A stretch of DNA of 64,000 nucleotides from Escherichia coli (GCF_044647545.1 NZ_CP172818.1); one strand, 5' to 3'. Shown: positions 19,051 to 46,555, counted from the first letter of the stretch. The notes: generated from the sequence alone by a model not told the origin. Translations and numbers: made by a program.

Positions 19051-19077
19051 CAAATTGCGTTCCACGGATGGAAGACT

Positions 19078-20967
19078 ATGGCAGGGAAGTTTCGCTGCAT
19101 TTTGCTGTTGATAGCAGGGCTTTTTTTCTCTTCGTTGAGTTATGCGAAAAACACGGAGATCCCTTCTTATGAAGAAGGGATCTCGCTCTTTGATGTTGAA
19201 GCCACTCTGCAACCGGATGGGGTGCTCGACATCAAAGAAAATATTCATTTTCAGGCGCGAAATCAGCAGATTAAGCACGGATTTTATCGTGATTTACCAC
19301 GACTCTGGATGCAGCCTGATGGGGACGCTGCACTGCTGAACTATCATATTGTTGGCGTCACCCGTGATGGTATTCCTGAACCCTGGCATCTTGACTGGCA
19401 TATCGGGTTAATGAGTATTGTCGTGGGCGATAAACAACGTTTCTTGCCTCAAGGCGACTATCATTATCAAATTCATTATCAGGTTAAAAATGCTTTCCTG
19501 CGTGAAGGGGATTCTGATCTGCTAATCTGGAACGTGACCGGTAACCACTGGCCGTTTGAAATTTATAAAACCCTATTTTCACTCAAGTTGCCTGATATTG
19601 CGGGTAATCCATTTAGCGAAATCGATCTCTTTACTGGAGAAGAGGGCGACACATATCGAAATGGCCGCATCCTTGAGGACGGAAGAATTGAATCCCGCGA
19701 TCCGTTTTATCGTGAAGATTTCACGGTACTCTACCGCTGGCCTCACGCTTTACTTAGCAATGCCCCGGCTCCACAAACGACGAATATTTTCAGCCATCTT
19801 CTTTTACCCTCCACGTCATCGTTGTTAATTTGGTTTCCTTGTCTATTCCTGGTTTGTGGATGGTTATATCTCTGGAAGCGCAGGCCGCAATTTACGCCGG
19901 TAGATGTGATTGAAACCGATGTCATTCCGCAAGATTACACACCCGGCATGTTACGTCTCGATGCGAAGCTGGTTTACGACGATAAAGGTTTTTGTGCCGA
20001 TATCGTAAATCTGATTGTGAAAGGAAAAATTCATCTGGAAGATCAGTATGATAAGAACCAGCAAATCCTGATTCGTGTTAATGAAGGCGCGACCAGAAAT
20101 AATGCGGTATTACTGCCCGCAGAGCAGTTATTACTGGAAGCGTTATTTCGTAAAGGCGATAAGGTCGTTCTTACGGGTAGACGCAACAGCGTCTTACGCA
20201 AGGCATTTTTACGGATGCAGAAATTTTATCTGCCGCGTAAAAAGTCTTCGTTTTACCGACCTGATGCGTTTTTGCAATGGGGCGGAATGGCAATATTGGC
20301 GGTCATTCTCTACGGTAACCTGAGTCCCGTAGGCTGGGCAGGAATGAGTCTGGTTGGCGATATGTTTATTATGATCTGCTGGCTTCTTCCTTTCTTATTT
20401 TGTTCCCTTGAGCTTTTGTTTGCCCGCGATGATGACAAGCCTTGCGTTAATCGTGTAATCATCACTTTGTTTTTACCGCTGATTTGTTCAGGCGTGGCCT
20501 TTTACTCTCTCTATATCAATGTCGGAGATGTATTCTTTTACTGGTATATGCCAGCGGGTTATTTTAGCGCTGTTTTCCTGACCGGCTATCTCACTGGCAT
20601 GGGGTATATTTTTCTGCCAAAGTTTACCCAAACTGGGCAGCAAAGTTATGCCCACGGTGAAGCTATCGTTAACTATCTTGCGCGTAAAGAGGCAGCAACA
20701 CACAGTGGGCGTCGGCGGAAAGGGGAAACACGGAAACTGGATTACGCGTTGCTAGGTTGGGCAGTCTCGGCAAACCTTGGCAGAGAATGGGCAGCACGTA
20801 TCACGCCGTCACTCACAGCGGCTGTTCGCGCCCCGGAAATTGCCCGTAGTGGCGTTTTATTCTCATTACAGACGCACCTGAGTTGCGGGGCCTATACCAG
20901 TTTGTTGGGGCGGAGCTATTCCGGTGGTGGTTCTGGCGCTGGTGGCGGAGGCGGTAGTGGCTGGTAA
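19078..20967 (+). CDS. yciQ: DUF2207 family inner membrane protein YciQ
   Basis: 629-aa ORF with signal/TM segments and Gly-rich C-terminus GGGSGAGGGGGSGW. Confidence 0.9.
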   Translation: MAGKFRCILLLIAGLFFSSLSYAKNTEIPSYEEGISLFDVEATLQPDGVLDIKENIHFQARNQQIKHGFYRDLPRLWMQPDGDAALLNYHIVGVTRDGIPEPWHLDWHIGLMSIVVGDKQRFLPQGDYHYQIHYQVKNAFLREGDSDLLIWNVTGNHWPFEIYKTLFSLKLPDIAGNPFSEIDLFTGEEGDTYRNGRILEDGRIESRDPFYREDFTVLYRWPHALLSNAPAPQTTNIFSHLLLPSTSSLLIWFPCLFLVCGWLYLWKRRPQFTPVDVIETDVIPQDYTPGMLRLDAKLVYDDKGFCADIVNLIVKGKIHLEDQYDKNQQILIRVNEGATRNNAVLLPAEQLLLEALFRKGDKVVLTGRRNSVLRKAFLRMQKFYLPRKKSSFYRPDAFLQWGGMAILAVILYGNLSPVGWAGMSLVGDMFIMICWLLPFLFCSLELLFARDDDKPCVNRVIITLFLPLICSGVAFYSLYINVGDVFFYWYMPAGYFSAVFLTGYLTGMGYIFLPKFTQTGQQSYAHGEAIVNYLARKEAATHSGRRRKGETRKLDYALLGWAVSANLGREWAARITPSLTAAVRAPEIARSGVLFSLQTHLSCGAYTSLLGRSYSGGGSGAGGGGGSGW

Positions 20968-21177
20968 TCAAGCTGATATTAATCGAAACAAGCTTTAACC
21001 ATAAAGATAGTGTAGTATGTTGCGCCTCAAAGCCAGGCCGATAAACGTCGAGTCGTTTACTTAAGGCCTGAAGAGTTCAAACAGACTTTACTATCAGTGA
21101 GTCAGATGTAAGTTCTGACTCACTGTTGCACAAAAGCATATCAGACGCCTGGGAAGGCGACACCAAAAGGAAGCTCT

Positions 21178-22053
21178 ATGAGCGAAAAGCTACAGAAAGT
21201 GCTGGCGCGTGCCGGCCACGGCTCTCGCCGTGAAATCGAATCTATTATTGAAGCCGGTCGTGTGAGTGTTGATGGCAAAATTGCTAAACTCGGCGATCGC
21301 GTTGAAGTTACCCCTGGATTGAAAATCCGTATCGATGGTCACCTGATTTCGGTACGTGAGTCCGCTGAACAAATTTGTCGCGTTCTGGCCTATTACAAAC
21401 CGGAAGGTGAGTTGTGTACCCGTAACGATCCGGAAGGACGTCCAACGGTGTTTGACCGTCTGCCAAAACTGCGTGGCGCACGCTGGATTGCCGTGGGTCG
21501 CCTGGACGTTAACACCTGTGGTCTGCTGCTGTTCACCACCGATGGTGAACTGGCAAACCGTTTAATGCACCCAAGCCGTGAAGTTGAACGTGAATATGCC
21601 GTGCGTGTATTTGGTCAGGTTGACGACGCGAAACTGCGTGATTTGAGTCGTGGCGTGCAGTTGGAAGATGGTCCGGCAGCCTTTAAAACCATCAAGTTCA
21701 GCGGCGGCGAAGGGATCAACCAGTGGTACAACGTTACTCTGACCGAAGGCCGTAACCGTGAAGTTCGTCGTCTTTGGGAAGCGGTTGGTGTGCAGGTGAG
21801 CCGCCTGATCCGTGTTCGTTACGGTGATATCCCACTGCCAAAAGGTCTGCCACGCGGTGGCTGGACGGAGCTGGACCTCGCCCAGACTAACTATCTGCGC
21901 GAACTGGTGGAGCTACCGCCAGAAACCAGCTCTAAAGTCGCTGTAGAAAAAGACCGTCGTCGCATGAAGGCGAATCAGATTCGTCGTGCGGTGAAACGTC
22001 ACAGTCAGGTGAGCGGCGGTCGTCGTTCTGGCGGACGTAATAATAACGGTTAA
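21178..22053 (+). CDS. rluB: 23S rRNA pseudouridine(2605) synthase
   Basis: 291-aa ORF with S4 domain and RsuA-family catalytic region, basic C-terminal tail. Confidence 0.93.
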
Positions 22054-22466
<413 letters not shown>

Positions 22467-22508
22467 TGCGGATAATGACATGGAATATCCGGCATTATAT
22501 TTACAGCA

Positions 22509-23099
22509 TTAATAATCAATCCCTATTTGCGCCTTAACACCGGCATCAAACGCATGTTTGATGGGGCGCAGCTCACTTACCGTATCCGCCAGTTCGAGTA
22601 TATCCCGATGACAACCACGACCCGTGATAATCACCGTTTGTTGATGTGGACGTTCATTTAACGCCTGCACCACTTCTTCCAGTGGCAAATAGTCATACGC
22701 CACCATATAAGTCAGCTCATCGAGCAAAACCATATCCAGTGAAGGATCGGCCAGCATTCGTTTGGCATGTTGCCAGACTTCACGGCAGGCCGCAGTATCA
22801 GATTCGCGATTTTGTGTATCCCAGGTAAAGCCCGTTGCCATCACCTGAAACTCAACGCCATGTGGCTCCAGTAGATTGCGCTCGCCATTAGGCCAGGTGC
22901 CTTTAATAAACTGCACGACGCCCACTTTTTTGCCATGGCCTACTGCACGAGTTGCCGTACCAAATGCCGCGGTGGTTTTGCCTTTTCCATTGCCGGTAAA
23001 GACGATGATAATACCGCGTTCATCCTGGGCCTGGGCCACACGAGCATCGACTTTTTCTTTCACTCGCTGCTGACGCTGTTGGTAGCGTTCATCACTCAT
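22509..23099 (-). CDS. btuR: Cob(I)yrinic acid a,c-diamide adenosyltransferase
   Basis: 196-aa ORF with P-loop GNGKGKTTAAFG; matches BtuR/CobO. Confidence 0.93.
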   Translation of the reverse strand: MSDERYQQRQQRVKEKVDARVAQAQDERGIIIVFTGNGKGKTTAAFGTATRAVGHGKKVGVVQFIKGTWPNGERNLLEPHGVEFQVMATGFTWDTQNRESDTAACREVWQHAKRMLADPSLDMVLLDELTYMVAYDYLPLEEVVQALNERPHQQTVIITGRGCHRDILELADTVSELRPIKHAFDAGVKAQIGIDY

Positions 23100-33249: not shown

Positions 33250-33255
33250 CGAGTA

Positions 33256-33290
33256 TTTGCTTGCCGGTTATTTTGCTTCCGGCAAGCAAA
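33256..33290. terminator. Bidirectional terminator between convergent acnA and ribA
   Basis: Inverted repeat ttgcttgccgg ... ccggcaagcaa with T-rich flanks. Confidence 0.65.
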
Positions 33291-33312
33291 TTAATTACAC
33301 AATGCAAGAGGG

Positions 33313-38069: not shown

Positions 38070-38337
38070 AATACTCTCTCCTGAATTTATGATTCACGGA
38101 AGTAAGCTCTCTATAACTATAATAGCTAAGAATAAGCCTGGTGAAATTATTCCGTGAAATCCGCTCGCGCGCAGGGTTATATCACGCAGGTGATAATGAC
38201 TTCCTGTTATATCGCTGATAATAATTTTATATCTTGAGAGTGTTAATAACAGGTAAATAGTCTTAATTATCAACCAGGAATCATCTTAGAGCGGATGATT
38301 TGCCAAACTGCAAATCATCCGTAGAGAAGGGAAATGG

Positions 38338-46150: not shown

Positions 46151-46488
46151 CGGCGGTTCAGTTCCTGCAGAATATTCTCCAGCACCGTCTCCTCATTACA
46201 ATCAATCTCGTTATTCCAGAAACGCAGCACGGTCCAGCCCTGCGACTCAAGCCAGCTAGTGCGCCTGGAATCATAGGCAACTGCTAAATCATGCTGCCCA
46301 CCATCCAGCTCAACGACTACACGCGCCGAGCAGCAAGCAAAATCGAGAATGTAGCTCCCCACTGGATGTTGACGGCGAAATTTGAAATCACTAAAACGTC
46401 GGCTGCGAAGATATCGCCAGAGCTTTCGTTCCTGCAAAGTGAGATTGCGTCTTAAATCACGCGCATTTGATTTAATTTTATCTATCAC
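46135..46488 (-). CDS. ycjD: DUF559 (Vsr/endonuclease-like) protein YcjD
   Basis: 117-aa ORF, apparent GTG start. Confidence 0.85.
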   Translation of the reverse strand: MIDKIKSNARDLRRNLTLQERKLWRYLRSRRFSDFKFRRQHPVGSYILDFACCSARVVVELDGGQHDLAVAYDSRRTSWLESQGWTVLRFWNNEIDCNEETVLENILQELNRRSPSP

Positions 46489-46555
46489 CTCATTCTGACA
46501 AGATTTAATCTTTTGTCAGAATGAGGTGAATAATCTGGAAGGAGGATTCAGAAGA

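Follow-up and report, generated by a model that had tools for sequence, protein, structure and literature searches.

A covarying stem-loop in the 5' leader of rluB in Escherichia coli and related enterobacteria

A stretch of 64,000 nucleotides from Escherichia coli (GCF_044647545.1 NZ_CP172818.1), hereafter the window, contains a perfect 12-bp hairpin at positions 21095-21125, between the yciQ and rluB genes. The hairpin was found to be located in the primary transcript of rluB, which encodes the 23S rRNA pseudouridine-2605 synthase, and to be read through by RNA polymerase with no mapped 3' end. Its structure was conserved on the + strand, with covariation between the two arms. The element very probably represents, in Escherichia, a conserved stem-loop with covarying arms that belongs to the rluB 5' untranslated region (UTR) of enterobacteria. 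Its parts in the window are:

21095..21106, + strand: left (5') arm of the hairpin, CAGTGAGTCAGA (columns 29-40 of alignment A4, with partners in columns 52-63)
21107..21113, + strand: hairpin loop, TGTAAGT, 7 nt
21114..21125, + strand: right (3') arm of the hairpin, TCTGACTCACTG

The two 12-nt arms of CAGTGAGTCAGA-TGTAAGT-TCTGACTCACTG were 100% complementary and enclosed a loop of 7 nt. Perfect hairpins of at least 12 bp with loops of 3-12 nt numbered six distinct cases in the 64-kb window, compared to a mean of 0.07 in dinucleotide shuffles, and a search for the hairpin pattern with up to three mismatches returned a single match in the window and none in 100 shuffles. Hence, the hairpin is far above chance expectation. 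As RNA, a 45-nt piece containing the hairpin was predicted to fold with -20.1 kcal/mol (z = -4.0). A 71-nt sequence spanning it was found in 3976 of the 5426 complete E. coli genomes, at a median of one place in each; among the carriers, 2634 were identical to the window and 1343 showed one to three base differences. The perfect 12-bp stem reported in the initial annotation, which was made from the sequence alone, was therefore confirmed as fully complementary, single-copy, and beyond chance. Its distance to the rluB ATG (21178), originally given as about 55 nt, was measured as 52 nt from the stem end.

The position of the hairpin relative to transcription was determined from published data for strain K-12 MG1655, where primary transcripts were sequenced over their full length by SMRT-Cappable-seq, starting from capped triphosphate 5' ends (Yan et al., 2018, PMC6131387). 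The supplement of that study includes a transcript with a transcription start site (TSS) at 1326700, a 3' end at 1327761, and b1269 (rluB) as its only gene content. A second rluB TSS was listed at 1326297 (window 20623), within the yciQ coding region. K-12 and the window do not differ in sequence between the promoter region and the rluB ATG, and coordinates were transferred through a K-12-type locus (L001), where the hairpin occupies 1702-1732 and the rluB ATG at 1326852 corresponds to 21178 in the window. Given this identity and the shared coordinates, the TSS at 1326700 (NC_000913.3) corresponds to position 21026. The resulting transcript features are:

21026, + strand: primary TSS of the monocistronic rluB mRNA (PMC6131387)
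21026..21177, + strand: rluB 5' UTR of 152 nt from the mapped TSS, with the hairpin at +70 to +100 and the AUG at +153
21178..22053, + strand: rluB coding sequence, 23S rRNA pseudouridine-2605 synthase of 291 amino acids (open reading frame [ORF] and RefSeq annotation of identical loci)

The TSS lies 69 nt upstream of the hairpin, which is thus contained in the primary transcript before the start codon. The placement in the rluB 5' leader proposed in the initial annotation holds, as the mapped start was upstream of the hairpin and not downstream. In term-seq data, the rluB terminator was represented by a 3' end at 1327761, and a Rho-dependent 3' end was reported at 1325258 inside yciQ (Adams et al., 2021, PMC7815308). 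The term-seq tables of that study contained no 3' ends at positions 13266xx-13268xx, and the TSS tables of PMC3415461 and PMC4782308 contained no entry in the rluB leader region. The hairpin is therefore inside the rluB leader and is read through by RNA polymerase with no detectable termination. Transcripts of yciV-yciO stopped short of the annotated yciVOQ operon (PMC6131387), and little transcription from the yciV-yciO promoter appears to pass through yciQ in K-12. Folding of the whole leader from the TSS yielded -58.1 kcal/mol (z = -4.95 compared to shuffles), with the 12-bp hairpin present in both the minimum free energy and the centroid structures; in this model, the hairpin is predicted to be an autonomous element of the leader fold. 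The leader of a typical relative had a z of only -0.5, compared to -4.95 in E. coli.

A scan of genome contigs with YciQ identified two Escherichia loci only, and a wider set was assembled from contigs encoding protein homologues and from a DNA-pattern scan of metagenomes. YciQ homologues with 51-58% identity were found in Klebsiella and in enterobacterial contigs, where they were likewise located between yciO and rluB. The yciQ-rluB spacers of these relatives aligned with the E. coli spacer, and each carried a long hairpin of other sequence at the homologous position. In Klebsiella, for example, the exact E. coli hairpin sequence was absent, and a homologous hairpin of different sequence was present in the same place. 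The metagenome scan, which used an invariant block of the leader with the E. coli variant excluded, identified 120 loci. The leaders were grouped as follows:

Long leader, 85 loci: a -10 element TAnnAT and a GC-rich discriminator, about 150-170 nt upstream of the AUG; includes the yciQ-containing E. coli allele
Short leader, 27 loci: directly after yciO; includes the yciQ-less E. coli allele
Other leaders, 20 loci: different upstream sequence

One metagenome contig (L028; 1323 nt, coverage of about 1.5) was left out of the analyses. It joins an E. coli-type leader to a Klebsiella-type Shine-Dalgarno region and rluB start, and is probably a chimeric assembly.

A total of 44 distinct long-leader hairpin regions (40 non-Escherichia and four Escherichia) were aligned with MAFFT from sequence only. 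The E. coli arms fell in the same alignment columns as those of the relatives, with the consensus CAGUGAGUUA...UAACUCGUUG. When pairs were counted over the E. coli stem and two outer pairs, standard pairs occupied 84.4% of the cells, compared to 29-44% when the partners were slid by one to three columns. Cells altered on both sides numbered 46, compared to 17 ± 3.5 in shuffles, and none of 500 shuffles reached 46. The covariation score was 0.366, against at most 0.117 when slid, and eight pairs were changed on both sides. For example, columns 32-60 included U-A in 15 sequences, U·G in 14, G-C in nine, and C-G in six. Columns 34-58 included A-U in 30, C-G in five, U·G in five, and G-C in one, while columns 37-55 included U-A in 25, U·G in 12, and C-G in the four Escherichia rows. 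The loop of the relatives was 9-14 nt long and unconserved outside Escherichia. RNAalifold, applied to 21 whole leaders with no structure supplied, returned exactly two helices, and the helix at the hairpin comprised nine pairs, five compensatory. The co-conservation of the stem arms, named in the initial annotation as a check, was thus borne out by compensatory and G·U changes. Since the sequence drifted while pairing was kept, and since many of the pairs were G·U pairs possible only on the + strand, the element is taken to be a helix of the + strand RNA, and the pattern is unlike that expected for a DNA operator.

Substitutions within Escherichia followed the same pattern. In ST131 and O150:H6, C21123 was replaced by T in the right arm, giving a G·U pair; this class of one mismatch makes up about one third of the E. 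coli carriers. Escherichia sp. MOD1 carried a C to T change at another right-arm position, and E. whittamii carried an A to G change in the left arm, both giving a G·U pair on the + strand. Hence, three of three independent stem substitutions were G·U-compatible on the + strand and would form an A·C mismatch on the - strand. Given the transition bias, the chance of such an outcome was roughly estimated as 0.04, which is suggestive and alone not decisive. The variant hairpins kept the full stem of 12 pairs, with -17.5 to -19.2 kcal/mol, and loop variants (TGTAAAT and TGTACGT) were observed in two non-coli Escherichia. The change of TAA to TAC in the E. whittamii loop (L006, 5946-6983) also deletes the only in-frame stop upstream of rluB, and a mechanically called ORF is consequently extended by 54 codons to 345 amino acids. 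This ORF is a trap of the ORF caller and does not indicate a longer protein.

The second helix in the RNAalifold prediction was a small hairpin located next to the Shine-Dalgarno sequence:

21144..21164, + strand: invariant leader core GACGCCTGGGAAGGCGACACC, with the small hairpin CGCCU/AGGCG, about 5 nt before the Shine-Dalgarno sequence (aligned leaders)

The core block, GACGCCTG(G/T)GAAGGCGACACC, had the highest conservation in the spacer. It was identical in every rluB leader aligned except for one G/T loop base, and it was present in both the long and short leader types, in several genera and more than 100 loci, including the yciQ-less E. coli allele, Klebsiella, and the metagenome loci. 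As a candidate regulatory site, the core block ranks above the 12-bp hairpin.

The hairpin is part of a segment whose presence varies among E. coli strains. The neighborhood corresponds to the trp-proximal region, with the gene order rnm(yciV)-yciO-yciQ-rluB-cobO(btuR)-yciK-sohB, and the upstream gene is:

19078..20967, + strand: yciQ (DUF2207), part of the presence/absence segment

The segment (approximately 19051-21143) includes yciQ and most of the yciQ-rluB spacer, including the hairpin, and is carried by about 73% of the complete E. coli genomes. About 940 E. coli genomes (approximately 17%) resembled the window only from about 21144 onward. In the two such genomes that were examined (L002 and L004, 2935-3000), yciQ was absent, and yciO was followed by a different, short spacer of 100 nt and then by rluB. 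This short spacer holds another hairpin, AATGGCGC-tatac-GGCGCCATT. As the hairpin moves with the yciQ segment in E. coli, it first seemed to belong to yciQ and not to rluB. That assignment was ruled out, as the long leader was found in other genera without yciQ and begins at the mapped rluB TSS. Where yciO directly adjoins the leader, the long form was also observed, which makes the leader a property of rluB. The gene content of the yciO-rluB junction differed between enterobacteria: five genes were reported there in K. pneumoniae (PMC3415461, Table S5), and an additional ORF of 87 amino acids and about 1 kb were found in two Klebsiella loci (L007 and L009).

The E. coli hairpin lacks the tail of an intrinsic terminator. 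The bases directly 3' of the stem (TTGCACAAAAGC) lack a T-tract, and the tail TTGCACAA contains two T in eight positions, reading UUGCAC in Escherichia. A terminator scan of positions 20700-21400 returned no sites. The stem of 12 bp, with six G-C pairs and a 7-nt loop, would by itself suit a terminator, for which a compact G+C-rich stem and a loop of 3-8 nt are typical, and the d'Aubenton-Carafa-type score (d-score) was -25 because of the tail. An intrinsic terminator was thus rejected on the scan, the negative score, the absence of a mapped 3' end, and the full-length read-through molecules. The early remark that the hairpin is not a typical terminator, having no T-tract after it, proved correct: the U-tract was absent, no 3' end was mapped, and molecules extending from the TSS to the rluB terminator were recorded. 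A different tail was observed among the relatives, where at least three U directly followed the stem in 37 of the 40 non-Escherichia leaders (UUUUUGAAAG, UUUUAGAAAG, UUUCAUAAAG, UUUUUCGAAG). The U-run was lost in all four Escherichia sequences and in two other lineages, L019 and L112. The long-leader hairpins of the relatives had G·U-rich stems of -6 to -19 kcal/mol (typically -6 to -14), and the Escherichia stem was two pairs longer, with wobble pairs replaced by Watson-Crick pairs, and at -19.4 kcal/mol was the strongest of the family in the 12-bp frame. Strengthening of the stem despite loss of the U-run speaks for selection still acting on the stem, for a function other than termination.

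Taken together, these observations point, with somewhat less than an even chance, to a cis-acting structural module of the rluB leader in E. coli, which would derive from an attenuator-type hairpin and affect the processing or stability of the mRNA, not termination. The ancestral state would have been a weaker, G·U-rich stem with a large loop and a following U-run, an arrangement typical of leader attenuators or weak terminators; an ancestral attenuator role is plausible, if not established. In Escherichia, the U-run would have become UUGCAC and the stem 12 Watson-Crick pairs, with termination lost. The stable, autonomous fold would then partition the 5' UTR and may hinder the 5'-end-dependent access of RNase E or its scanning towards the ribosome-binding region. 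The A-rich segment 3' of the stem (UUGCACAAAAGCAUAU) would be left single-stranded, and endonucleases such as MazF could cut there. The expected outcome would be a change in the lifetime and processing of rluB mRNA, with transcription termination unaffected. Among known systems, 5' stabilizers of the ompA type and other obstacles to RNase E resemble the rluB hairpin in having a stable, autonomous 5' UTR hairpin upstream of an A/U-rich single strand and the ribosome-binding site, and differ from it in their 5'-terminal position, as the rluB hairpin begins at +70.

RNase E and RNase III cleavage maps were named in the initial annotation as a check; the published processing records for the leader amounted to a MazF site and an RNase III-dependent signal. 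One reported cleavage site is adjacent to the stem:

21130..21132, + strand: ACA triplet, reported MazF site, 4 nt 3' of the stem (PMC5001579, Table 1)

Processing of rluB mRNA by MazF at an ACA located 49 nt upstream of the AUG was inferred from coverage (Sauert et al., 2016, PMC5001579). In a comparison of a Δrnc strain with the wild type, a Δrnc-enriched position in the yciQ-rluB spacer was reported at 1326710, with 15 reads versus none in the wild type, which places it towards the end of the table (Gordon et al., 2017, PMC5371410). This position corresponds to 21036 in the window, which is 10 nt past the TSS and 60 nt upstream of the hairpin. Hence, a coverage-inferred MazF cut lies close to the 3' side of the stem, while the RNase III-dependent signal was very weak and distant from it. 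A role of the hairpin in RNA processing or stability is plausible, albeit unproven.

Several observations weigh against the structural module described above. The MazF site was derived from coverage inspection under mazF overexpression. Classical 5' stabilizer hairpins are located at the very 5' end of the transcript. The rluB hairpin, unlike these, starts at +70, 69 nt downstream of the TSS, and a cleavage further upstream would be needed to bring it close to a 5' end. The hairpins of the relatives scored poorly as intrinsic terminators by classical criteria, with a median d-score of -30, a maximum of +4, loops of more than 8 nt, and no call in the terminator scan, which makes the attenuator ancestry itself uncertain. 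The approximately 940 E. coli genomes resembling the window only downstream of the segment apparently lack the hairpin, and the different short leader in the two examined implies that the hairpin is dispensable for rluB expression. In addition, a covariance model built from the 40 non-Escherichia hairpins matched positions 21087-21130 with 12.6 bits (E of about 3), the second best match in 64 kb, where a model of the hairpin only is too short for significance. Given this weak score, the homology rests on the position in the aligned leader and not on the hairpin model alone. Searches of Rfam with positions 20000-23000 of the window and with the leader of one typical relative returned chance-level matches only (E > 2), and a literature search found no paper on an rluB leader.

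Among the alternatives, a residual attenuator or pause hairpin, at which partial termination or pausing of transcripts from the rluB promoter and of yciQ read-through would tune and insulate rluB transcription, is unlikely. The hairpin sits between the promoter and the gene, as do the leader terminators and attenuators of trp, pyrBI, and pheS, its stem is strong at about -20 kcal/mol, and a U-run comes after its homologue in 37 of 40 relatives. Leaders of the short type also carry a canonical GC-rich hairpin and U5 in the same relative place, with a d-score of +8.7 in L020. However, the E. coli stem is followed by just UU and then GCAC, no 3' end was mapped in the leader, full-length molecules were recorded, and the d-scores were negative in E. 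coli (-25) and at the median of the relatives (-30). The rluB leaders also differ from known attenuators in their weak stems, loops of 7-14 nt, and lack of conserved partner elements: RNAalifold revealed no conserved competing (antiterminator) helix among the 21 leaders, and no conserved leader peptide was seen on inspection. The small ORFs in the leaders of the relatives were unconserved, and the ATG-TAA of E. coli at 21106-21111, formed by the last base of the left arm and the loop bases, has its Shine-Dalgarno-like GAG hidden in the stem, so a leader peptide was rejected. A decayed terminator that persists in the leader as a functionless relic after loss of the U-tract is improbable. It would account for the missing U-run in Escherichia, L019, and L112, and for the dispensability of the hairpin in yciQ-less E. 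coli, but the stem appears improved rather than eroded, with 12 perfect pairs and -19.4 kcal/mol against the -6 to -14 kcal/mol typical of the relatives, and all three Escherichia stem substitutions preserved pairing (rough chance of 0.04).

Control of rluB mRNA decay through cleavage of the perfect duplex by RNase III, as in the rnc and pnp leaders, is very improbable. RNase III substrates typically include about two helical turns, or roughly 20 bp of double-stranded RNA. The rluB leader resembles the stems of rnc, pnp, and phage T7 R1.1 in that a gene of RNA metabolism carries a perfectly paired duplex in its 5' UTR, and the Δrnc-enriched list includes an entry in the spacer (1326710). The stem is nevertheless only 12 bp long, its flanks adding at most one mismatch and two weak pairs, which leaves it below two turns; the stems of the relatives are weaker and G·U-rich; and the sole signal in the spacer in that Δrnc data set, 15 versus 0 reads, ranked among the lowest listed and lay 60 nt away from the hairpin. 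By analogy with autoregulatory ribosomal-protein leaders, such as those of S4 (the alpha operon) and S15, the hairpin might instead be an RNA operator for RluB or for another ribosome-biogenesis or ribosomal protein, possibly together with the invariant hairpin 20 nt downstream, although such feedback seems distinctly unlikely. The likeness lies in a conserved, covarying leader structure preceding a gene of the translation apparatus, in the wholly invariant small hairpin beside the Shine-Dalgarno sequence of all leaders, and in the S4-like RNA-binding domain of RluB, as RluB orthologues matched the Pfam S4 family. RluB binds an isolated stem-loop of 23S helix 93. Mimicry of this helix (GAACGUCGUGAGACAGUUC) was rejected, since the match of the left arm (GUGAGUCAG) to GUGAGACAG at eight of nine positions was one of 14 such windows in the 23S rRNA, a chance-level likeness, and the best 23S matches to the hairpin were near 1944-1956, not in helix 93. 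The core hairpin had no match at the RluB site of 23S rRNA either, the loop was conserved in neither sequence nor length, a short leader allele without the hairpin exists, and neither significant helix 93 mimicry nor an Rfam match was found, in which rluB differs from the ribosomal-protein leaders. Finally, a role at the DNA level is hardly tenable, whether as an operator for a dimeric regulator, a recombination or cruciform site, or a member of a REP, ERIC, or MITE family. A perfect 12-bp inverted repeat with a 7-bp spacer, intergenic and beside a presence/absence segment, would suit such a role and resembles the REP/BIME and ERIC/IRU palindromes of E. coli. The hairpin differs from these in being single-copy, without sequence resemblance to them, and inside a defined 5' UTR; a repeat element was rejected on the single match in the window with up to three mismatches and the median of one place per genome in 3976 genomes. 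An operator is also at odds with its position 69-99 nt downstream of the TSS, away from the promoter, and with the drift of its sequence under retained pairing, as G·U and U·G pairs correspond to A·C on the other strand and are asymmetric in duplex DNA. The protein-binding palindrome offered in the initial annotation is thus disfavored at the DNA level, given the covarying arms and the many G·U pairs specific to the + strand.

A broader proposal is that the hairpin, together with the small hairpin GACGCCUG(G/U)GAAGGCGAC, forms an undescribed cis-regulatory leader RNA common to enterobacterial rluB genes. It would act as an attenuator, or as an operator for feedback through RluB or a different ribosome-assembly factor, and would couple the synthase to ribosome production; this is a rather unlikely possibility at present. 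To our knowledge, almost nothing is known about the regulation of rRNA-modification enzymes. Within a leader found upstream of rluB in many enterobacteria, the hairpin is the one helix backed by covariation; other parts of that leader are an invariant hairpin by the ribosome-binding site and a -10 element that is conserved and carries a GC-rich discriminator. If the leader is regulatory, it would add a small new case of a ribosome-biogenesis gene controlled after initiation, and the more interesting possibility is that the whole leader with its invariant hairpin is the undescribed regulatory RNA of such an enzyme. If the hairpin is merely a structural feature of the UTR, the finding is an ordinary one, of an element still transcribed and conserved, and neither a terminator nor a DNA operator. 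In either case, the hairpin is a modest find and not a startling one. A natural experiment is provided by E. coli strains with the long or the short leader, and by Escherichia without the U-run that its relatives keep.

The promoter of the leader was also conserved. Its candidate element in the window is:

21013..21018, + strand: candidate -10 hexamer TAGTAT, followed by the GC-rich GTTGCGCC, 8 nt upstream of the mapped TSS

The -10 element was kept as TAnnAT (TAGTAT, TACCAT, TAATAT, or TACTAT), followed by G..CG[C/G]CC, in all class-A leaders. A consensus promoter scan made no call at 21013-21018 because of a poor -35 element. The GC-rich discriminator reads GTTGCGCC in the window (21013-21026 region) and GTGCGCCC in the relatives, and judged by its sequence, the rluB promoter may resemble the stringently controlled promoters of rRNA and ribosomal-protein genes. 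In several lineages (L024, L063, and L019; about 150-175 nt upstream of the core block), an inverted repeat of 7-9 bp flanks the -10 element and the start site and covaries, for example, as ATTCGTG...CACGAAT, as ATTCATG...CATGAAT, or in L019 as TTCAAATGT...ACATTTGAA. The repeat is not present in E. coli. Such repeats could serve as an operator surrounding the rluB promoter; alternatively, they could form an RNA helix in transcripts that read through.

Downstream of rluB, the region from the rluB stop to cobO (22100-22466) consists of about 370 nt of nearly pure poly(A) (Tandem Repeats Finder, TRF: period 1, 288 copies, 22179-22466). In its place, K-12 has a 39-nt spacer with the rluB terminator, and ST131/FDAARGOS_497 has two hypothetical genes. 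The poly(A) block was covered by none of the 5426 complete E. coli genomes, where the best matches were to its flanks only, and the block represents an artefact of the assembly or else a very odd insertion.

Other perfect hairpins of at least 12 bp were also observed in the window. Within the 5' end of the yciQ coding sequence, 79 nt past its ATG, there is a perfect 13-bp palindrome at 19156-19184 (GAGATCCCTTCTT-atg-AAGAAGGGATCTC). Stems of 17 bp, 13 bp, and 12 bp were located at 46485-46529 (TCACCTCATTCTGACAA...), 33255-33291, and 38292-38321, respectively, and the perfect hairpin at 6140-6167 (AAAAGCCTCC...GGAGGCTTTT) resembles an ordinary terminator.

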